Below are positions 11,074 to 40,792 of a stretch of 43,118 nt of DNA, piece after piece. Numbering within the stretch: the stretch's first letter is position 1; each line of letters begins with the position of its first letter. The stretch comes from a bacterium (GTDB lineage: Bacteria; Patescibacteriota; JACMRA01): contig JAYUKQ010000086.1 in NCBI GenBank assembly GCA_043764315.1, positions 1 to 43,118 of the forward strand, read 5' to 3'. A program made the position numbers and the translations under genes. The notes under the pieces were generated by a model. It was not told the DNA's origin. It saw only the letters and a list, made by a program, of their open reading frames with translations, and made no database searches.

Positions 11074-12569
11074 AAAAGGAGGTAATCCATCCACAGCTTC
11101 CGCTACGGATGCCTTGTTACAACTTAAATTCAGTCACTGAGCTAGCCTTCCATTCCAAAACTGAAATTTTGGGGCTCTCTCAATTCCCAAACCTTGATGG
11201 GCAGTGTGTACAAAACCCGAGAACGTATTCACCGCGACGAGGCTGATTCGCGATTACTAGCAATTCCAGCTTCATGGAGTCGGGTTGCAGACTCCAATCC
11301 GTACTTAGGGAGGTTTTAATAGATTTGCTTGGCCTTGCGACTTAGCTGTCTCGTTGTACCTTTCCCATTGTATCATGTGTGTAGCCCTGGACATAAGGGA
11401 CACGCTGATCTGACGTCATTCTATCCTTCCTCCCGTTTAAACACGGGCAGTCTCTCTAGACATTAAATAACTAGAGATTAGAGTTGCGCTCGTTTTCGGA
11501 CTTAACCGAACATCTCACGACACGAGCTGACGACGACCGTGCATCACCTGTGAAAGCTTCTAGCAAGCTAGATCATCAGTGTTTCCACCTTTTACTACTA
11601 ACATGTCAAGCCCAGGTAAGGTTCCTCGCTTAATATCGAATTAAACCACATGATCCACTGCTTGTGCGGGTTCCCGTCAATTCCTTTGTGTTTTAGCCTT
11701 GCGGCCGTACTATACAGGCGGAGTGCTTATAGCGTTAGCTTTTGCCACTAAATCAGATTGATTTGACCTAATAGCAAGCACTCATCGTTTAGGGCGTGGA
11801 ATACTAGGGTATCTAATCCTATTCTCTCCCCACGCTTTCGTCCTAGCAGTGTCAGGATACACCCAGTAGTCTGCTTTCGCTTTTGGCGTTCCTTTACATA
11901 TCAACGGATTTCACCCCTACTTGTAAAGTTCCAACTACTTTTTTGTACCTCAAGTCTAGCAGTTTCCGAACCAAACACGCAGTTAAGCTGCGGTCTTTCA
12001 ATTCGGACATACTAAACAACCTTCGGAACGCTTTACGCCCAATAAAACCGGATAACGCTTGGAGCCTCTGTATCACCGCTGCTGCTGGCACAGAGTTTGC
12101 AGCTCCTTTCTAGAGATCTCTTCAAAATTTAGTAGATCTCCACAGAAGTTTACGACCCGAGGGCCTTCATCCTTCACGCGGCATGGCTCGGTCAGGGTTT
12201 CCCCCATTGCCAAAAATTCCCCACTGCTGCCACCCGTAGGTGTCTGGGCCGTGTCGCAGTCCCAGCGTGCCTAATCGTCCTCTCAGACTAGGTACCCGTC
12301 TTAGGCTTGGTGAGCTATTACCTCACCAACTACCTGATAGGAAATAGGCCTTGTCAATAGCGGTTTACACCTTTAATCTTACGATCACATTTGGGATTAC
12401 CTAGTCTTTCAACTAGCTATACCAAACTATTGGGAAGTTCCTATTTATTACTCACTCGTTTGCCGCTGATCATTTTTATGTATTGCTACACAAGAAATCA
12501 CCGCTCGACTTGCATGTGTAAAGCCTGCCGCCAGCGTTAATCCTGAGCTAGGATCAAACTCTCAAAAAG
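11074..12569 (-). rRNA. rrs: 16S ribosomal RNA, about 1.5 kb, no large insertion
   Basis: Reverse complement begins ...gagtttgatcctagctcaggattaacgctggcggc and ends ...gtaacaaggcatccgtagcggaagctgtggatggattacctcctt. Conserved blocks are present throughout. Ends are good to a few nt. Confidence 0.95.
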
Positions 12570-12582
12570 AAAATAGCGTTAT

Positions 12583-12617
12583 CTTGGTTACTGAATAATA
12601 CACAAAATATGTTTTTT
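12583..12617 (-). other. 5' arm of the pre-16S processing stem
   Basis: Complementary to 10861-10898 (see that feature). Confidence 0.75.
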
Positions 12618-12661
12618 ATCTGTAAATTTCTGCGTTGACAAGTGTCTCACAGCACCCCAGT

Positions 12662-12691
12662 ATTATAGAAAGAATTTATTAATCTTGTCAA
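12662..12691 (-). promoter_or_regulatory. Sigma-70-type promoter for the 16S rRNA
   Basis: The minus strand reads ctcTTGACAagattaataaattctttcTATAATactggggtgctgt (18-nt spacer). The same roughly 47-nt block recurs upstream of the 23S gene at 37042-37088. Confidence 0.8.
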
Positions 12692-12784
12692 GAGATAACA
12701 ATTTAAAAACCACTTTTGATATTGGTTTTTACTTCAATAAAACCTGACTATATCTAAAAATTATTCAATTTAAACTTCGATTAA

Positions 12785-12808
12785 AATAGTATAAAAAATA
12801 GTATAAAA
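12785..12808. repeat. Perfect tandem 12-mer (aatagtataaaa x2) in the divergent 16S/yvcK-like control region
   Basis: 12785-12796 is identical to 12797-12808. Function unknown; it could be an UP-element or a factor site. Confidence 0.8.
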
Positions 12809-12827
12809 AAACTAATATATTGACACC

Positions 12828-12855
12828 TAGACAACAAAATCAAAATTGTTATAGT
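12828..12855 (+). promoter_or_regulatory. Candidate promoter giving a near-leaderless yvcK/cofD-like mRNA
   Basis: TAGACA (12828-12833), 16-nt spacer, TATAGT (12850-12855). The ATG at 12864 is only 8 nt after the -10 element. Confidence 0.4.
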
Positions 12856-12863
12856 ATGTTTTT

Positions 12864-13904
12864 ATGTCATTTTATAAAATATTAGTTCTTGGTGCTGGTG
12901 GACACGGTATTTTATCTCTTAGGAATCTGTTTGAAGAGGAAAAAATTGATTTTAAAATATTTTATAATACAACTGATTGGGGAGGTAGTTACGGTCTGTG
13001 GGGAAGATTATTGGAATATAATAATCACGAATTAAATCAAAAACTACACAATCAAAAACTTCCAGTACTACCTTTTGCTGATCCTAATAAATTAATTTGT
13101 TTTTACTTAGAAAAATCTGGGATTGATCCAAAATTGTATTTTGACTTTAGATCAAACAATCAAAAAGAACATGTGTCTGCAATTAATAAAATGTTTGATA
13201 AAATAAAATTGACCAATGATCAAAAATCAAAATTTTTAGAGTATTTTGGTATAGTTTGGTATTATTATAAGCAAAATAGATTTAATTTGGAGTATGAGAG
13301 CAAATTATGTCTGGGTTATATATTTCAGTCTTTTTTATATTCAAGCCTTGGTGGTATGAAAGCCTGGAATACATTTTATCAAAATATTGGAATATTACCA
13401 AAAAACATTGAGATATGTTTTAGTGGCGATGATAGAAATATATTAGCTGGTAATGATATAAGCCTAGAGCGTGTTATTGGGGAAGACAAATTAGACACAT
13501 ATCAAAGTCCGATACTTCCTAACAGTTTGGAACTACTAGATATATACCATCAAACAATAAACTGCAATCGATTAACCGTAGATTGCGTTGAGCAATCAGA
13601 TTTGATTATAATACCAAATGGTTCAGTAGCAAATTGGTTACCACTAACAAACGACTCAACATTAAAAACAACATTAAAAAGTAAAAAAATTGTTTGGATA
13701 ACCAATCCTTACCGCACTCACAACGAATTGATAAACCCTAACTATTACCTATATTTGAAAGAAAATGATTTTAACTCTATTCCACTTGCTCAATTAAATG
13801 GAATTAAAAACAAAGGTTTTTGGAATGTACTGGAACAAGATAAACAAGGCAAATATAAACCAAAAGATATAGCAAATCAAATTTTAAAAATAATCGAAGA
13901 ATAA
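12864..13904 (+). CDS. YvcK/CofD (UPF0052) family protein, divergent
   Basis: KILVLGAGGHGILSLRNL and NTTDWGGSYGLWGRL correspond to YvcK IGGGTGLS and ADDGGSSGRLR. DLIIIPNGSVANWLPL corresponds to ADVIVIGPGSLYTSVLP. Confidence 0.7.
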   Translation: MSFYKILVLGAGGHGILSLRNLFEEEKIDFKIFYNTTDWGGSYGLWGRLLEYNNHELNQKLHNQKLPVLPFADPNKLICFYLEKSGIDPKLYFDFRSNNQKEHVSAINKMFDKIKLTNDQKSKFLEYFGIVWYYYKQNRFNLEYESKLCLGYIFQSFLYSSLGGMKAWNTFYQNIGILPKNIEICFSGDDRNILAGNDISLERVIGEDKLDTYQSPILPNSLELLDIYHQTINCNRLTVDCVEQSDLIIIPNGSVANWLPLTNDSTLKTTLKSKKIVWITNPYRTHNELINPNYYLYLKENDFNSIPLAQLNGIKNKGFWNVLEQDKQGKYKPKDIANQILKIIEE

Positions 13905-13917
13905 AACTGTATTAATT

Positions 13918-14523
13918 ATGCCCACAGCATCTCTTAGAGCTCCAGAAGGTTATCACCTTGTGAATATAATGCAATCTTGTATGCATGTAAGGTTAGACTT
14001 ATTTTTAAAATTTGGAGGTCATCCAGGGGCAGCTGGCTTTACATTGATAAAAGAAAATTTGATAGAGGCTAAACATTTGATGAGTTCACAAGTCAAGCCA
14101 AATACACAAGAACCAATTAAGTTTAATCAAAACATTGAAACACCAAAGGAATGGAATAATTTAATATGTAAAAAAAATATAATCTGGATAAAAATACAAA
14201 ATTTAGATATTAATCTACTGAATCAAGTTTTTGAGTTAGATCCATTTGGTCAAGACTTCCCTTTACCTAGTTTTGGTTTCAAATTAAGCCAAGAAGATAT
14301 TTTGAATTATTCTTTAATGGGAAACGATAATCAACATTTAAAAATAGAAGTTAATGGTTTCAAAATATTATATTTTAATGCTGATAAAAAAGTAATTGAA
14401 TACGTAAAAAATCCAATTGAAATGATGTGGATAATTGCCAAACCTAATAAAAGTAGTTTTAGACAAAAAACTTCTGTGGATTTGATTTTAGAAAAATTTT
14501 ATGTGAACAAACAAACTGAATGA
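13918..14523 (+). CDS. RecJ-like DHHA1 and C-terminal domain only (N-terminally truncated recJ remnant or stand-alone domain)
   Basis: ASLRAPEGYHLVNIMQSC...LFLKFGGHPGAAGFTL matches the RecJ GSxRS...FGGHxxAAG DHHA1 signature. The DHH catalytic domain is absent, and only 13 nt separate this ORF from the upstream gene. Confidence 0.6.
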   Translation: MPTASLRAPEGYHLVNIMQSCMHVRLDLFLKFGGHPGAAGFTLIKENLIEAKHLMSSQVKPNTQEPIKFNQNIETPKEWNNLICKKNIIWIKIQNLDINLLNQVFELDPFGQDFPLPSFGFKLSQEDILNYSLMGNDNQHLKIEVNGFKILYFNADKKVIEYVKNPIEMMWIIAKPNKSSFRQKTSVDLILEKFYVNKQTE

Positions 14524-15710
14524 CAATCATAGTTGATTTGAGGTGTTTGAACTATAAACCAATAACTGGTGTCAATGCTTATTGTATAAGATTTTTACAC
14601 TGCTTGTATATTAATAAAAATAAATATTCGCAATTTAAAATACTGGGTTTAGGTCTGCACAAGAATAGACAAATAGAACTAAATAAAGATTTCTATTTTT
14701 TTGAGATGTTGTTTGAAGGTCATTTGACACTGGGTGAATATCTTAATACTAGTACTAAAAATAGTAGACTCAATGAAATAAAAACAATCGGTAGTTTGTA
14801 TACCAAAAAAAATATTAATAGCTCAAAAGTTAAGTTTTTTGACTTGTTACTATTACCTCAACCTAGACCAATTTTAAAACACCCAAACACAAAATTAATT
14901 ACGGTTGTTCACGATATATTTTCAATTCTAGACAGGAGTAGCAATTTGACGCAAAAAATAATATACTCAAAAACAACCCTAAATAAAATTCTATCAGAGA
15001 GTCAAAAAACTATAGTAAATTCAATGGCAACTGGTTATGATATTCAAAAATATTTTAAAAACAAAAGCCAAATCAATCTAGTCTACCCAAGCCTCCCCAA
15101 GTTAAGTGAGATATCGACAAAGGTGTTTTTAACAGAGGGTGAGGTGGGTAAGTATTTAAAAAAAATAACCAAAAAACCCTTTATATTAGCTTTATCAGGT
15201 ATAGAAAAGAGAAAAAATTGGTTAAATTTAATCAAAGCTTACAATATCCTAGCTCAAAAAAATCAAGAATCACCAAGTTTAATTCTAGCAGGAACAATTG
15301 TTGATCAAAAATATTATAAACAAATACTTAACCTGATTCAAAAGCTTAATCTAAAATCAATTATTTGGTTTTTGAACCCCACCGAGGAAGAAAAAGAGTT
15401 TTTACTAAAAAATTGCTGCTTATTTGTGTACCCATCAATTTATGAAGGTTTTGGTTTTCCAATATTAGAAGCTCTACAGTTTGAAACCAAGGTGTTAACC
15501 AGCTCCATTTCTAGTATGCCCGAGGTGGGTGGGCAAAATTGTAAATATATCAACCCATTTAACCCGTTAGATATTTTTTTTGGTATAGTGAATAATCTGA
15601 ATAAAGAAAAAACACGAGAACAAAATTGTGTAGTTAAATTTGATTGGTTGGAGTTAGAGGTTTGGTTAGAAAAAAATGTTTTTGAATACCTAAAAACCTC
15701 CAAAGAATAA
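14520..15710 (+). CDS. Glycosyltransferase, GT4 (GT-B fold) family
   Basis: C-terminal EGFGFPILEALQFETKVLTSSISSMPEVGG is the classic GT4 E-x7-E region. ATGA start/stop overlap with the upstream ORF. Confidence 0.8.
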   Translation: MTIIVDLRCLNYKPITGVNAYCIRFLHCLYINKNKYSQFKILGLGLHKNRQIELNKDFYFFEMLFEGHLTLGEYLNTSTKNSRLNEIKTIGSLYTKKNINSSKVKFFDLLLLPQPRPILKHPNTKLITVVHDIFSILDRSSNLTQKIIYSKTTLNKILSESQKTIVNSMATGYDIQKYFKNKSQINLVYPSLPKLSEISTKVFLTEGEVGKYLKKITKKPFILALSGIEKRKNWLNLIKAYNILAQKNQESPSLILAGTIVDQKYYKQILNLIQKLNLKSIIWFLNPTEEEKEFLLKNCCLFVYPSIYEGFGFPILEALQFETKVLTSSISSMPEVGGQNCKYINPFNPLDIFFGIVNNLNKEKTREQNCVVKFDWLELEVWLEKNVFEYLKTSKE

Positions 15711-15817
15711 AAAAATATTAACAAAAAATGTCTATAAAAATGTCTATAACCTTTTTAAAATTAACACAAAAAACACCCAAAAAGCTCTTGTTTATCAGCA
15801 AAAAAAGAGTTTTAGAC

Positions 15818-15850
15818 AATGTCTATAAGTGTCAGCAGCTATACTAAACA
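15818..15850. repeat. Left arm of a 33-bp inverted repeat (1 mismatch); partner at 16051-16083
   Basis: aatgtctataagtgtcagcagctatactaaaca matches the reverse complement of 16051-16083. The arms enclose a 200-bp very AT-rich segment. Confidence 0.9.
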
Positions 15851-16050
15851 GGTTATTTTTTGAATAAAAGCTTTAAAATAGACTATTTTGAGTTGTTGAG
15901 TCTAAAAACCCCTCAAACAAGGTAAAAATGAGCATAAGTGAGTGTATAACTAACTATTAACATTTACGATAAAAACTATTAAATAATGGCTTTTGGTAGA
16001 ATGTTTTTAAAAAAAAGACTTTAATTAATAGTTTTTAAAAAATAATTACT

Positions 16051-16083
16051 TGTTTAATATAGCTGCTGACACTTATAGACATT
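16051..16083. repeat. Right arm of the 33-bp inverted repeat
   Basis: tgtttaatatagctgctgacacttatagacatt, complementary to 15818-15850. Confidence 0.9.
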
Positions 16084-16328
16084 TTTAAAAAAAGTTATAG
16101 ACATTTGTTCATAACTTTCATAACTTTTTGAGGTGAGTAAAAAGTTATAGACATTATCGACAATTGTCTATAACTTTATAGACACGAATAACGTCTACAA
16201 TAAAAGGAAAGAGAGAGTTATCGACAACTTATCGACAACTTATTACTACTGTTAAATTATTTTATATATTAAAAAAGAGAGTAAATGGTATAGAACAAAA
16301 TTACAAAATAAAGAGCCATAGAAAATGG

Positions 16329-16359
16329 TTGACAAAATTACAAAAAAATTGATCATAAT
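16329..16359 (+). promoter_or_regulatory. Candidate uvrA promoter giving a leaderless or near-leaderless mRNA
   Basis: TTGACA (16329-16334) and CATAAT (16354-16359), with a 19-nt spacer that is longer than ideal. The ATG at 16365 lies 6 nt after the -10 element. Confidence 0.35.
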
Positions 16360-16364
16360 TACAT

Positions 16365-19280
16365 ATGTCAAAAGACTCTTTCAAGCAGGAAATATATAAG
16401 TACAATTCGCCTAAATACTTATCAGATTTAAGCTTTACACCAAACCCAAACAATTTTATAACAGTTAGAGGTGCAAAAGAACACAATCTAAAAGATGTTT
16501 CAATAGTTATTCCAAAAAATAAATTGGTTGTTTTTTCTGGTCTTTCTGGCTCTGGTAAATCATCACTCGTGTTTGATACAATTTATGCCGAAGGTCAAAG
16601 ACGGTATGTAGAATCCCTATCCAGTTATGCTAGACAATTCTTGGGTTTAAAGGAAAAACCTCAAGTTGGTTCAATTGATGGCTTGAGTCCTGCCATATCT
16701 ATTGATCAGAAATCAACCTCACATAATCCAAGATCTACAGTTGGTACCACTACTGAAATATATGACTATTTGAGACTTCTGTTTTCTAAGGTTGGTATTC
16801 AACACTGTCCAGTCTGTCAATCACTAGTTTCGGGTGAAAGTGTTACCCAAATCGTTGGTAGAATATTAGAGCTAGAAAAAGAAACTAGAATTATAGTTTT
16901 AGCTCCGATTGTCTCTTCTCAAAAAGGTTGGCACAAACAACAAATTTCAGAAATTAAAAAATCTGGATTTAAACGTGTTAGGGTTGATGGAAAAATAATT
17001 TTGATAGAAGAGGCTGAAAAATTAGACCTTAATAAACAAGAAAAACACAGTATTGAAGTTGTTGTTGATCGTCTTGTTGTTGATGAAGATAACCGCCAAA
17101 GATTAATAGAGTCTGTCGAGGTCTCCCTTAAACAGGGTAAAGACAAGATGATGATACTACACACCAACCCTGATGGTATTGAGAGGGTTTTGTATTACAA
17201 CAAAAACAAAGCTTGTCCCAATGGTCATGGTACACCAGCTGACACTGAACCAAGATCTTTTTCTTTTAATTCACCTCATGGAGCCTGTACACTCTGTACT
17301 GGACTTGGGGTCGTAACTCAAATTGATGTTGACCTTGTTATTCCGTCTAAGACATTATCGATTATGGAGGGTTGTATAAGACCACTATCTCAACTTAGTC
17401 TTTCAGGTGGTTGGTTAACTAAAACACTTGAATCGATAGCTTCTAAGCTTAATTTCAAGTTAACAGAACCGTGGCAAAACCTATCAGAGGAGCAAAAATT
17501 AGCTATTTTGTACGGTTACGAACCCTTAAAATTCGAAGGTGTTATTAAGAACCTAGAAAGAAGGTACAAAGAAACCACTTCTGATTCCGCCAGAAAAGAT
17601 ATAGAAAGTTATATGACCAAAAAAGTTTGCCCGGATTGTCACGGAGCTAGGTTGAATAAAGATAGTTTGGCAGTTTATATTTGTGGTAAAAACATTTCTG
17701 AAATATCATCTTGGCCAATTTCAACTTGCTACAATTTTTTTGTTGAGCTGATGAATCCCGAAACAACCAAATTCAATTCTAGAGATTATGAAATATCCAA
17801 AATGATAGTTAAAGAGATAACTTCCCGTCTCAAATTCTTGAGTAATGTTGGTCTTGATTATTTAACTTTGGCTCGTTCCGCAGACACCCTTTCTGGTGGT
17901 GAAGCGCAGCGTATTCGATTAGCAACTCAAATTGGTTCTGGCTTAACTGGTGTTCTTTATATCCTTGATGAGCCATCAATTGGTTTGCATCAACGTGACA
18001 ACGTTAGACTACTTGAAACTCTCAAATACCTAAGAGATCTTGGAAATACTGTTTTAGTCGTTGAGCACGATGAAGACACTATTAGACAATCTGATTTTTT
18101 GGTAGATGTTGGTCCAGTTGCTGGTAAGAATGGTGGTCAAATAGTTGCAATGGGAACACCCGAAGACGTTATGAAAAATGACAATTCGCCAACTGGTAGG
18201 TTCCTTTCTGGTAAGGACAAAATTGAACTACCAAAACAAAGACGAGAAGTTGATTTTAATTCAAAACCAAAAGATAAAAACGGTCAGAAATTTGTAAGTA
18301 TTATCAACGCCAATGAGAATAACCTTAAAAATGTAACAATTCACCTACCTCTTAGAAAATTCGTTGCTGTAACTGGTGTATCTGGTTCTGGAAAATCCAC
18401 AGCTATTAATGATATATTATCTAATCATTTGATGAATTATTTTTATGACTCACACTTACCTATAGGAGATTTTGAAGAGATAACAGGTCTTGAGAATATC
18501 GACAAGCCAATTATTATTGATCAGAGTCCAATTGGACGTACACCACGTTCTAATCCAGCTACTTACACAGGTTTGTTCACACCTATTCGTGAATTATTTT
18601 CAGAAATACCAGAATCGAAGGCTAGAGGTTACACACAAGGTAGGTTTTCTTTTAATGTTCCAGGTGGTCGATGTGAAACATGTCAAGGTGATGGTTTGAT
18701 AAAAGTTGAAATGAGTTTTTTACCTGATGTGTATGTGGTTTGTGAAGATTGTCACGGAAGACGATACAATAGAGAAACTTTGGACATTACTTATCGGGAT
18801 AAAAATATTTCTGATATCTTAAGTATGAATGTGGAGGAAGCTTCTGAATTTTTTGCCAATCACAAGTTGATCAAAAGAAAATTAGATACTTTGATACATG
18901 TTGGTATGGGATATATTACACTGGGTCAATCCGCAACCACACTTTCTGGTGGTGAAGCCCAGAGAATAAAACTAGCAACAGAGTTATCTAAAGTTGGAAC
19001 TGGTAACACACTCTACATTCTCGACGAGCCAACAACTGGTTTGCACCCACTAGATGTCAAATTATTACTTGATGTTTTGCACAAGCTTGTCGATAAAGGT
19101 AATACAGTTCTGGTTATCGAACACAACTTAGATGTTATCAAAACAGCTGATTGGGTTATTGATCTTGGTCCAGAGGGTGGTGATATGGGTGGTCACATTG
19201 TTGCTGTTGGCACTCCAGAAACAGTAGCCAAATCCAAAGGTTCTTACACAGGTCAATTTCTTAAGAAAGTTATAAAATAG
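16365..19280 (+). CDS. uvrA: Excinuclease ABC subunit A
   Basis: 971 aa. Two ABC modules (GLSGSGKSSL and GVSGSGKST; LSGGEAQRI twice). Zn-finger CxxC pairs. Collinear with UvrA. Confidence 0.97.
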   Translation: MSKDSFKQEIYKYNSPKYLSDLSFTPNPNNFITVRGAKEHNLKDVSIVIPKNKLVVFSGLSGSGKSSLVFDTIYAEGQRRYVESLSSYARQFLGLKEKPQVGSIDGLSPAISIDQKSTSHNPRSTVGTTTEIYDYLRLLFSKVGIQHCPVCQSLVSGESVTQIVGRILELEKETRIIVLAPIVSSQKGWHKQQISEIKKSGFKRVRVDGKIILIEEAEKLDLNKQEKHSIEVVVDRLVVDEDNRQRLIESVEVSLKQGKDKMMILHTNPDGIERVLYYNKNKACPNGHGTPADTEPRSFSFNSPHGACTLCTGLGVVTQIDVDLVIPSKTLSIMEGCIRPLSQLSLSGGWLTKTLESIASKLNFKLTEPWQNLSEEQKLAILYGYEPLKFEGVIKNLERRYKETTSDSARKDIESYMTKKVCPDCHGARLNKDSLAVYICGKNISEISSWPISTCYNFFVELMNPETTKFNSRDYEISKMIVKEITSRLKFLSNVGLDYLTLARSADTLSGGEAQRIRLATQIGSGLTGVLYILDEPSIGLHQRDNVRLLETLKYLRDLGNTVLVVEHDEDTIRQSDFLVDVGPVAGKNGGQIVAMGTPEDVMKNDNSPTGRFLSGKDKIELPKQRREVDFNSKPKDKNGQKFVSIINANENNLKNVTIHLPLRKFVAVTGVSGSGKSTAINDILSNHLMNYFYDSHLPIGDFEEITGLENIDKPIIIDQSPIGRTPRSNPATYTGLFTPIRELFSEIPESKARGYTQGRFSFNVPGGRCETCQGDGLIKVEMSFLPDVYVVCEDCHGRRYNRETLDITYRDKNISDILSMNVEEASEFFANHKLIKRKLDTLIHVGMGYITLGQSATTLSGGEAQRIKLATELSKVGTGNTLYILDEPTTGLHPLDVKLLLDVLHKLVDKGNTVLVIEHNLDVIKTADWVIDLGPEGGDMGGHIVAVGTPETVAKSKGSYTGQFLKKVIK

Positions 19281-20808: not shown

Positions 20809-20951
20809 AATTACAAGCAATAACCCTATACACAATAAAAAATTATCTTGACAAGAAAATCAAACTTATGTTAACATAACCTAGATGCTGTCTAAACTTC
20901 TGTCGGTTTAGATTTTATTTTATTGTAAAATTCATCTGCAATTTTGTTAAT

Positions 20952-21323
20952 ATGTCCAAAACTCAACAAATCATCGACCAATTAAAAGAGCTATCCTTGA
21001 TGGAAGCCGCTGAATTGGTAAAATCTATAGAAGAAACCTTTGGCGTATCTGTTGCTGCCCCTGTAGCTGTTATGGCTGCCGCCGGTCCTGTAGCTGCCGC
21101 TGAAGAAAAGACTGAATTCAATGTTAAAGTAACTGAGGTTCCAGCTGATAAGAAAATCTCTGTAATTAAAGCTGTTAAGACACTTTTGAATATTGGTCTA
21201 GCTGATGCTAAAGCTAAAGTGGAATCTGCTCCTTTTGTATTATCTGAAGGTGTTAACAAAGAAACTGCCGAAGCTCAAAAATCTCAATTAGTTGAAGCTG
21301 GTGCTGTGGTTGTGCTTGAGTAA
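20952..21323 (+). CDS. rplL: 50S ribosomal protein L7/L12
   Basis: N-terminal dimerisation helix, Ala/Pro/Val hinge AAPVAVMAAAGPVAAAEE, and C-terminal domain KISVIKAVKTLLNIGLADAKAKVE...EAGAVVVLE. Confidence 0.95.
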   Translation: MSKTQQIIDQLKELSLMEAAELVKSIEETFGVSVAAPVAVMAAAGPVAAAEEKTEFNVKVTEVPADKKISVIKAVKTLLNIGLADAKAKVESAPFVLSEGVNKETAEAQKSQLVEAGAVVVLE

Positions 21324-21346
21324 TTATAAACCCAAATTACACCATT

Positions 21347-22123
21347 ATGTTAAGTTTAGCTAATCTATATCAATTGGGTACACACCGTGGAAACAGCAAA
21401 TCTAAGCTTAATCCGAGACTAAAAAATCGTGTGTATTCATACAAAAAGAATCTCTGTACTATTGATTTGGTCTCTACAATGGATTCCATTGTCAAAGTTA
21501 AAGATTTATTTCAAAAACTAGGTCACAAGAAAAAACAGATTTTAATTGTTGGTACATCTAATCATCTTTCTACCAATGTTCCTGAAATGGCTAAGCTGTT
21601 TACTAGTAACGAAATGCCTTATATCAACGCTCGTTGGTTGGGTGGTACTTTGACCAATTGGGTAACAATTAAGAAAAATCTAAAAATTCTTGAAAAACTA
21701 GAAAATATTCGAAATGATGAAAAATTTTTTGGCGCTTTAGCTCGCAATGAACAATTAAGTATTTCTCGCAAAATTGTGAAAATGAACAAGTTTTTTGTTG
21801 GTTTAAAAAACCTAAAAACTAATCGTCCTGGAGCTATTTTGGTTTTAGATTCAGCTTTAAATGATATTGCTATCAAAGAAGCTGAATTGGTTGGAATCCC
21901 TGTTGTCGCTTTGACTAATACTTTCATCCAAACTTTACCAAAAAATTCAAGTTACACTGTGTTGTGTAACAACAACTCAATTAATGCAGTTGACTTTATT
22001 GTCAAAGAGTTTGTTGATTCATACAACATTGGTTTAACAATGGCTATTGAGTCGGTTCAGAAGGAAAAATCTGAAAAGACTGCCAAGGTTGAACATATTG
22101 TAAGCGAAGAAGTTGTTGCTTAA
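21347..22123 (+). CDS. rpsB: 30S ribosomal protein S2
   Basis: LGTHRGNSKSKLNPRLKNRVYSYKKNLCTIDL corresponds to the S2 motif GxHFGHxxxxWNPKM..YI...R..IxIIDL. The length also fits. Confidence 0.85.
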   Translation: MLSLANLYQLGTHRGNSKSKLNPRLKNRVYSYKKNLCTIDLVSTMDSIVKVKDLFQKLGHKKKQILIVGTSNHLSTNVPEMAKLFTSNEMPYINARWLGGTLTNWVTIKKNLKILEKLENIRNDEKFFGALARNEQLSISRKIVKMNKFFVGLKNLKTNRPGAILVLDSALNDIAIKEAELVGIPVVALTNTFIQTLPKNSSYTVLCNNNSINAVDFIVKEFVDSYNIGLTMAIESVQKEKSEKTAKVEHIVSEEVVA

Positions 22124-22291
22124 CTAACTCCAACTTAAACGACTAAATTAGATTTATATACAAAGTAATTATAATTTTTTAAGCTAATTTTATAATTCCA
22201 ATTAAAGTATTCCAATAGTTTTAACTTAAAGAATATTTTTTATTTTTAGTAAAATCTAATTTAGTCATTTTAAATTTAATTTTTAATCACT

Positions 22292-22492
22292 ATGGCTTGG
22301 CAAAAAAACAAAATTTTGTTGGTTTCTGTGGAAGAGGTAACTCAACCTGATGGAACTATCAAGAAAGTCTATCATCGCTACGTGGTCAACAAATCCAAAG
22401 CAAAAGGTAAACCAATAAAAAAATTGGAACTTAAACGCTATAACCCTATTCTTAGGAAGCATGTCATTTATAAAGAAACAAAGTACAAATAA
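22292..22492 (+). CDS. rpmG: 50S ribosomal protein L33 (non-zinc type)
   Basis: The C-terminus KLELKRYNPILRKHVIYKETKYK closely matches E. coli L33 [23 protein letters not shown]. Confidence 0.9.
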   Translation: MAWQKNKILLVSVEEVTQPDGTIKKVYHRYVVNKSKAKGKPIKKLELKRYNPILRKHVIYKETKYK

Positions 22493-37220: not shown

Positions 37221-40272
<3,052 letters not shown>

Positions 40273-40302
40273 CGTAAATTTTTGTTACGATTTGATTCCA
40301 AC

Positions 40303-40328
40303 TGTTATTTAAATTTAACTGTAAGTTT
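40303..40328 (+). other. 3' arm of the pre-23S processing stem
   Basis: Complementary to 37116-37141. Confidence 0.75.
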
Positions 40329-40523
40329 ATTCTTGCATTATACAAAATTAATCACTCCAATTATGGGGTCTTTTTTGTTTGTTTAAAATTTTTGATTTGT
40401 CAGAGTATTTCAAGAAATTTTGAAGTTCATAATTATTACTTAAACTGTATTATTGTCTTGACCAGAATTGGCTTATTATGGTATTTTTGGTTAGCAAATT
40501 TACTTTTTCTAATTTTTTTCTTT

Positions 40524-40792
40524 ATGCCTAATATCAACTCACCAATTACCAGAACTAACCCATCCTTAATTGTATTCTTACTAGATCAATCTGGTTCTAT
40601 GAGTGGACAGAAAAACTAATAATGGAACCAAATGCTGTTGGATTCGTGCTTAATGCTAAGCTTAATGACTTCAATAGATTCTTGAATGTCGGAACCCCTC
40701 TCGCTTCTGGCGATTTAGTTATTACCACTGTTCAACCTTCCTCAGCACAGTTGACTAATAGTAGTAACAACACTTTTGATTTGCCAATGTAA
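40524..40792 (+). pseudogene. von Willebrand factor A (TerY-like) gene remnant, frameshifted at an A5 run and 3'-truncated
   Basis: MPNINSPITRTNPSLIVFLLDQSGSMSGQKN then a double stop (MIDAS DxSGS motif). The -1 frame continues (L)IMEPNAVGFVLNAKLNDFNRFL...DLVITTVQ, which looks like vWA helix 1 and strand 2, and ends at 40792. The repaired length of about 90 aa is far short of a roughly 180-aa vWA fold. Confidence 0.6.

Follow-up and report, generated by a model that had tools for sequence, protein, structure and literature searches.

The 654-bp non-coding gap at positions 15711-16364 of the DNA analyzed here (the window, 43,118 nucleotides, which is contig C86 of a 1.15-Mb assembly, designated G000, that comprises 130 contigs and is 73% complete) is, with a probability of roughly 80%, the chromosomal replication origin (oriC) of an ultra-small bacterium of the Patescibacteria type. 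This assignment is based on the combination of a cluster of DnaA-box-like 9-mers that is unique in the assembly, an adjoining module of the basal unwinding system (BUS) type, a turn of GC skew and gene orientation nearby, a monotonic skew on the contig that carries dnaA, origins unlinked from dnaA in related genomes, and altered DNA-reading residues in the DnaA protein of the same genome. The sequence-only reading of this DNA had proposed a replication origin made of DnaA-box-like 9-mers with dnaA elsewhere, and the uniqueness of the cluster, the BUS-type module and the origins of the relatives all support that proposal. The locus departs from the textbook origin in that position 6 of the box, elsewhere a strictly conserved C, is occupied by G, residues of DnaA are replaced, and the site is unlinked from both dnaA and dnaN. 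The Bacillus-type origin design itself is already known; what is new is the changed core base of the box, matched by changes in DnaA, in a very probable origin that is unlinked from dnaA.

The gap is bounded by genes identified with Pfam, a group-1 glycosyltransferase gene (14520-15710) and uvrA (16365-19280). Exact matching bore out all eleven copies of TTAT(A/C)GACA that had been recognized in the gap from the sequence alone, four of them on the minus strand (starts 15729, 15741, 15820, 16165) and seven on the plus strand (starts 16073, 16095, 16145, 16154, 16176, 16218, 16229). Across the full window, 15 copies of TTATMGACA were observed against 1.09 expected, a count that was reached in none of 100 shuffles. 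The suggested count over the whole genome gave 46 copies in the assembly, and the gap before uvrA is the sole place where three or more fall within 300 bp; given the background rate, at least 11 copies in 509 bp have a Poisson probability of about 3e-28 per window. A further box with one mismatch (TTTTAGACA) starts at 15810, so that 11 exact copies and one near-copy in both orientations are packed into 509 bp of non-coding DNA, the arrangement of several boxes within a few hundred base pairs that characterizes oriC. Each of the 11 exact 9-mers agrees with the DnaA consensus at 8 of 9 positions and carries G at position 6, the single departure from the E. coli box that had been pointed out before, and accordingly none of them matches the stringent consensus TTATNCACA (or TTWTNCACA). 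Because the DNA-reading residues of the DnaA encoded in this genome are changed as well, these 9-mers are treated here as a putative variant DnaA box. The boxes fall into several groups (Table 1), of which the distal one (15729-15828) is oriented opposite to the main array; the latter (16073-16184) includes a head-to-head pair, TTATCGACA-AT-TGTCTATAA, with a like design found in the relative G020. The leftmost pair, together with the T-rich tract of low stability to its left (15700-15749), forms a weak mirror image of the module at the right-hand end of the gap.

That right-hand module has the anatomy of a BUS, which is defined by a run of three or more NAN trios separated by no more than 16 bp from one or two boxes, with a distance of 13 bp from the upstream box being the commonest (PMC8287927). 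We applied the rule that the box may have at most two mismatches to the species' own box and that the spacer may be 0-16 bp (PMC8287927). Under this rule, the tandem boxes 16218 and 16229 are followed by five NAN triplets, that is, triplets with a central adenine, at 16240-16254, the first of which lies 13 bp past box 16218 and is separated from the tandem pair by a 2-bp spacer. The orientation of boxes relative to trios was inferred from two relatives with canonical boxes and GAT trios (G023 and G008), not from the B. subtilis sequence, and the tandem-box modules were aligned by eye with those of G015, G010, G023 and G008. The adjoining 40-mer 16237-16276 is among the 15 least stable of the window in silico (-37.6 kcal/mol compared to a mean of -48.0), which places a predicted AT-rich unwinding element beside the boxes, as in an oriC. 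The likeliest site of DNA opening appears to be 16240-16276, immediately after the tandem boxes. The sequence-only reading had favored instead the stretch between the arms of a 33-bp inverted repeat, which is AT-rich as claimed (77.5% AT vs 66.4% for the genome), is weakest at 16000-16061 and includes, at 16022-16061, the 40-mer with the lowest stability in the gap; this second weak spot is ranked behind 16240-16276 because it lacks an adjacent arrangement of tandem boxes and trios.

The closest known counterpart is the BUS in the incC part of B. subtilis oriC, which consists of DnaA boxes 6 and 7, a spacer, DnaA-trios and an AT-rich region (PMC6669920, PMC8287927, PMC10721633). The candidate shares with it two boxes of the same orientation 2 bp apart, a first trio 13 bp past the upstream box, three or more NAN triplets on the complementary strand followed by an AT tract, and additional boxes farther upstream that face either way. 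Distal boxes of this kind in B. subtilis act in either orientation over up to several hundred base pairs, probably by looping, whereas the orientation of the boxes beside the trios is fixed (PMC6669920). In contrast to B. subtilis, the boxes here are TTATCGACA rather than TTATCCACA, AC takes the place of a GC cluster as the spacer, most of the trios are AAT and one is GAT, and the origin, instead of being bipartite around dnaA in the dnaA-dnaN region, would lie between a glycosyltransferase gene and uvrA. By analogy, initiation would begin with the binding of the organism's DnaA, via domain IV, to the eleven TTAT(A/C)GACA boxes. The tandem pair 16218/16229 would then position an oligomer of ATP-DnaA. 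Growing along the adjacent bottom-strand trios (16240-16254), this oligomer would open the AT tract at about 16255-16276, where the helicase would be loaded. The remaining boxes upstream, among them the distal left group at a distance of 400-500 bp, would serve to raise the local occupancy by DnaA, possibly via DNA looping.

Table 1. Features of the candidate origin and its surroundings (positions in the window)
Feature	Positions	Strand	Description
Whole candidate oriC	15711-16364		Non-coding gap, 654 bp, 75.8% AT, from glycosyltransferase gene to uvrA
Distal left box pair	15729-15749	minus	TTATAGACA, ttt, TTATAGACA; leftward T-rich tract to glycosyltransferase stop codon
Head-to-head pair	15810-15828	both	TTTTAGACA (plus, one mismatch) and TTATAGACA (minus)
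Left arm of 33-bp inverted repeat	15818-15850		Contains box 15820
AT-rich interior of inverted repeat	15851-16050		200 bp; nested 25-nt repeat 15970-15994 / 16013-16037
Right arm of 33-bp inverted repeat	16051-16083		Contains box 16073
Main DnaA-assembly array (putative)	16073-16184	plus	6 boxes: 16073, 16095, 16145, 16154, 16165 (minus), 16176
Tandem box pair, platform of proposed unwinding module	16218-16237	plus	TTATCGACA-AC-TTATCGACA; corresponds to boxes 6 and 7 of B. subtilis
DnaA-trio-like run	16240-16254	minus	Top TTA TTA CTA CTG TTA; bottom 3'-AAT AAT GAT GAC AAT-5'
AT-rich tract, proposed DNA-unwinding element	16255-16276		AATTATTTTATATATTAAAAAA
uvrA promoter candidate	16329-16356	plus	TTGACA-16 nt-GATCAT; ends about 8 nt before ATG
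Gene-orientation divergence and contig minimum of cumulative GC skew	12570-12863		From open reading frames and GC skew

The larger-scale geometry of the contig also points to an origin in this area. The cumulative GC skew of C86 reaches its minimum at 12.5 kb after a drop of 334 and climbs by 505 from there, the clearest V shape among the 25 largest contigs. The previously described flip of gene orientation is present, with the switch at about 12.6 kb: secA, rpoC and the 16S gene (11075-12569, minus strand) are transcribed leftward, the 23S gene (37221-40271, plus strand) and ribosomal-protein genes rightward, and the plus strand carries all real open reading frames (ORFs) rightward of 12.86 kb. 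The suggested check of the skew minimum, carried out contig by contig, placed it 3-3.7 kb to the left of the array. At this scale, skew cannot be separated from gene orientation, and the geometry is therefore read as placing the origin somewhere within 12.6-16.4 kb, without mapping it precisely. Elsewhere in the assembly, contig C23 (about 11.5 kb) shows an inverted V (+230, then -242) that might represent a terminus region, and contig C44 (about 8 kb) shows a small V (-164, then +184) and has no box cluster. A search of the window for parS-like sites found none above chance. Between the orientation switch and the glycosyltransferase gene, RecJ (12864-14523) appears to be split or truncated, with a 346-aa ORF that has no Pfam match followed, after 13 nt, by a 201-aa ORF in which DHHA1 and RecJ_OB are the only domains. 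On the opposite side of the array, the mRNA of uvrA may be leaderless or nearly so if it starts from the promoter candidate listed in Table 1.

As stated in the sequence-only reading, neither dnaA nor dnaN adjoins the array; both are on contig C71. The dnaA gene (20861-22297, minus strand) is flanked by ORFs that we take, from their translations only and without a check against Pfam, to be signal-peptidase-like and formyltransferase-like, and the 400-bp gap upstream of it contains no boxes, which answers the earlier suggestion to look there for the same box. The dnaN gene (39551-40765) is located 17 kb from dnaA behind a gap of 21 bp that is likewise free of boxes. The skew of C71 declines monotonically, by 893 over 50 kb, a course expected in the middle of a replichore, and the positions of the two loci on their contigs imply a distance of no less than about 37 kb between the array and dnaA. 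Canonical boxes (TTATNCACA or TTWTNCACA) were not found clustered anywhere in the assembly. An unbiased scan of the assembly for repeated 8-mers returned four other repeat clusters, none of them a box-like array: coding repeats on C81 and C40, a locus on C58 (60-800) that resembles a clustered regularly interspaced short palindromic repeat (CRISPR) array, with at least 10 copies of the 36-nt repeat CTTGAACTTATCGTTTTATTTTGAACTAGCTAAAG and spacers of about 30 nt, and a plasmid-type locus on C34. In the last of these (C34:16820-18646), the 16-mer ATCCGCGATATGACAC occurs in nine direct copies, and again once in part and once inverted, within AT-rich DNA directly upstream of a 379-aa ORF whose match to Replication initiator protein A is weak and falls short of the cut-off (PF10134, E 2.6e-5); the same contig encodes ParA-like, relaxase-like, VirD4-like (coupling-protein-like) and methyltransferase ORFs. 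This locus looks like the replicon of a plasmid or an integrative conjugative element that was binned with the Patescibacteria genome, and it was rejected as an alternative origin, being of the iteron and Rep type and not DnaA-box-like.

For comparison with relatives, the family offers 26 genomes and the order 27. By a search for three TTATNNACA sites in the same orientation, a pattern sensitive to variation at positions 5 and 6 only, and by inspection of the matches, intergenic box clusters were verified in six other genomes of the same family (Table 2), and in all six dnaA is on a different contig; in two genomes from other families (G028 and G030), a canonical cluster abuts dnaA. The module of G023 and G008 is of textbook form, with a box and a second, degenerate one, then 4 bp of spacer, CTACTACTACCACTAC (3'-GAT GAT GAT GGT GAT-5' on the opposite strand) and an AT tract; in G015 and G010, tandem boxes are followed by TTATTATTA, in close likeness to the module before uvrA. 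Given that modules and box clusters are alike and are located away from dnaA, the array before uvrA is, on sequence grounds, the apparent counterpart of the origins in this family that have left dnaA. In three of the relatives, the origin is directly upstream of recA (in G008 as judged from the first codons), as it would be of uvrA here; a repair gene beside the origin could be a coincidence or could reflect a preference for such genes at this place.

Several other candidates in the relatives were less convincing. Pairs of TTATMGACA in G010 and G013 were rejected as origins because they are inside genes, as was a pair in G021 that is inside a 479-aa ORF; a pair in G017 sits at the promoter of an ABC transporter and is a candidate only. 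Among 401 genomes from 319 genera of the phylum, the genome analyzed here is the only one with several tandem TTATNGACA pairs, and three further genomes have one such pair each, which is the level of the reversed-pattern control. The closest match of the flanking glycosyltransferase in genome and metagenome collections is only 39% identical (a Candidatus Peregrinibacteria metagenome-assembled genome), which makes a strain-level comparison impossible and assigns the organism to a lineage only loosely.

Table 2. Boxes, neighboring genes and DnaA reading residues (E. coli numbering) in genomes with verified box clusters
Genome	Location	Box	Next gene	Residue 423	Residues 432-436
G023	L055 3912-4294	TTWTCCACA (C6)	recA (Pfam)	Pro	RDH(S/T)T
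G015		TT[A/G]TCCACA (TTATCCACA) (C6)	673-aa ORF	Pro	RDH(S/T)T
G028		C6		Pro	RDH(S/T)T
G030		C6		Pro	RDH(S/T)T
G008	L100 1230-1450	TTWTGCACA (strict G5, C6)	recA-like by first codons only	Pro	RNHTT
G014		TTATGAACA / CTGTGAACA (GA at positions 5-6)	rpoC	Gly	RNHST
G020	L056 5200-5657	TTATCAACA, 14 exact copies in and beside gap (CA at positions 5-6)	recA (Pfam)	Gln	RSHAT
G010		TTATNTACA (about 13) (T6)	frr, ribosome recycling factor (named from translation)	Thr	RTHPT
This genome	C86 15711-16364	TTAT(A/C)GACA (G6)	uvrA	Lys	KSHST

The box differs between these genomes in step with the DNA-reading residues of DnaA. In E. coli, base-specific contacts are made by R399, P423, D433, H434, T435 and H439, and residues 433-434 form a highly conserved dyad (PMC2533591, PMC7561715, PMC5043019). 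Alignment of domain IV of the DnaA from this genome to the structure of E. coli domain IV (1J1V) indicates that R399, H434 and H439 are kept and that the protein carries P423K, R432K, D433S and T435S, so that three of the six base-reading residues are replaced (P423K, D433S and T435S). Across the nine genomes with verified box clusters, this one included, Pro423 and Asp433 are both lost in each of the four lineages whose box has a base other than C at position 6 (A, A, T and G), an association that is clean in a small sample, and across genera of this one family position 6 is occupied by C, A, T or G. In domain IV, this DnaA shares 35-41% identity with the proteins from the same genus, compared to 54-61% over the whole protein or longest matched stretch; the four genomes of the same genus have the motif KNHST and have also lost Pro423. 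One of these, G002, contains two different full-length dnaA genes on contigs C14 and C49 (L098, L074), with the motifs KNHST and KNHAT, which could be paralogues or could result from strain mixing or contamination of the bin.

Boxes that differ between species are known, namely AAACCTACCACC in Thermotoga maritima, TTGTCCACA in Mycobacterium and those with a strict T5 in Epsilonproteobacteria (PMC5043019, PMC7561715). The case described here resembles these systems in that the general origin design is kept, the box is off the E. coli consensus and residues of domain IV differ in parallel; in our alignment, the DnaA of T. maritima, which reads a different 12-mer, likewise has Ser at the position of Asp433. 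It differs from them in that the change affects position 6, with four bases seen there within one family, whereas that position is treated as fixed and any departure from TTATNCACA lowers the affinity (PMC5043019). The parallel changes suggest that the replaced DnaA residues may be the cause of the change in the box. We tentatively propose, at odds somewhat short of even, that the family has re-tuned initiator and site repeatedly, with each of the non-C lineages independently replacing the near-universal Pro423/Asp433 by a different pair, so that together they would form a matched series of specificity switches.

Several observations weigh against the assignment of the gap as oriC. Five NTN triplets within T-rich DNA are weak evidence when taken alone; the skew minimum (12.5 kb) and the strand switch (12.6-12.86 kb) both sit 3-3.7 kb to the left of the array, in a signal that is itself confounded with gene orientation; and, with 73% of the genome in 130 contigs, a better second origin could sit in unassembled DNA. 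Furthermore, no comparable array was found in the four genomes of the same genus, where searches for box pairs yielded only chance matches in coding DNA, and there is no synteny at uvrA within the genus, the regions upstream of uvrA in G001 and G003 being unrelated and free of a box array. A weak group of two to four sites is present in one of the genomes of this genus (G004:C53). Because the same-genus origins were not found, the G6 box is confirmed in one genome only.

The most serious rival explanation follows directly from the incompleteness of the assembly, namely that the array is a secondary cluster of DnaA boxes, similar to datA or to the non-oriC clusters of B. subtilis, that titrates or regulates DnaA, with the true oriC located in the unassembled 27%. 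Such clusters exist, they are dense and distant from dnaA as is the array, and the 3-kb displacement from the skew minimum speaks for this reading. The gap, however, holds a complete module of tandem boxes, trios and an AT tract, which is common to the origins of the relatives; its eleven boxes are the largest and only cluster in the assembly, on the one contig with a clear V-shaped skew, and the flanks of dnaA and dnaN are bare of boxes. A trio run, a melting-prone tract and a nearby skew turn set this locus apart from datA-type loci, and a pure titration site would need none of these. We consider a secondary cluster improbable, although it is the explanation to be taken most seriously after an origin. 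It appears still less probable that the 9-mers serve as operators or iterons for a protein other than DnaA, a possibility raised already in the sequence-only reading; such a protein could be, for example, a damage-response repressor of uvrA or a plasmid-type Rep. The departure of all copies from the canonical DnaA consensus at position 6 and the repair genes that follow the arrays (uvrA here, recA in G023 and G020, and in G008 by first-codon resemblance) are compatible with an operator role, but in G014 and G010 it is rpoC and frr that follow the corresponding arrays. Operators of the SOS or repair type would overlap the promoters of repair genes consistently across relatives, whereas the candidate promoter of uvrA overlaps no box, the last of which stops 92 bp short of its -35 element, and a set of eleven copies that face both ways and extend over 500 bp is not operator-like. 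Iteron origins contain direct repeats of about 17-22 bp beside rep; here, 9-mers in both orientations are flanked by a glycosyltransferase gene and uvrA with no adjacent Rep gene, and the actual iteron and Rep locus in this bin, that on C34, looks quite different. The fit of 8 of 9 box positions to the DnaA consensus and the variation of the box across the family in step with the reading residues of DnaA also speak for DnaA.

The inverted repeat invites yet another interpretation, that the unit 15818-16083 is a miniature inverted-repeat transposable element (MITE) or another mobile insertion, with the box array partly its by-product. The repeat was found as described earlier, 33 nt with one mismatch (67 nt at 79% when extended), and terminal repeats of this kind around a 266-bp non-coding unit are what a MITE would show. 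Nevertheless, a BLAST search with the gap as query returned no further copy in the assembly, the ends of the unit show no evident target-site duplication, and 7 of the 11 boxes are outside it, so that we reject the MITE and regard a mobile origin of the unit as very improbable, the least probable of the explanations considered. As single-stranded DNA, the repeat could fold into a long hairpin (z-score -8.1). A search against Rfam gave nothing at the gathering score, and a permissive search gave only plant microRNA hairpin matches far below threshold; the gap was accordingly rejected as an RNA gene.

With the gap taken as the probable oriC, its separation from dnaA has a familiar parallel. The oriC of E. 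coli lies between gidA and mioC and is unlinked from dnaA. The candidate resembles it in being located tens of kilobases or more from dnaA, with no boxes in the promoter region of dnaA that was examined, and differs from it in lacking the gidA/mioC context and in having a module of the Bacillus (trio) type without the E. coli 13-mer repeats.

The origins of uncultivated ultra-small bacteria have almost all been predicted from proximity to dnaA and from a match to the E. coli box. In this family, the present genome included, neither rule holds, so that standard origin finders would mislocate or miss the origin; if the present assignment is correct, tools keyed to TTATCCACA miss real origins. 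Growth-rate estimates from metagenome read depth also need the correct position of the origin. The matched pairs of residues and boxes in this family are testable with purified domain IV and short oligonucleotides (TTATCNACA, with N = C, A, T or G), and the family could yield a recognition code for DnaA domain IV. Such pairs could also show how an essential initiator and its many sites switch specificity together while the cell survives.

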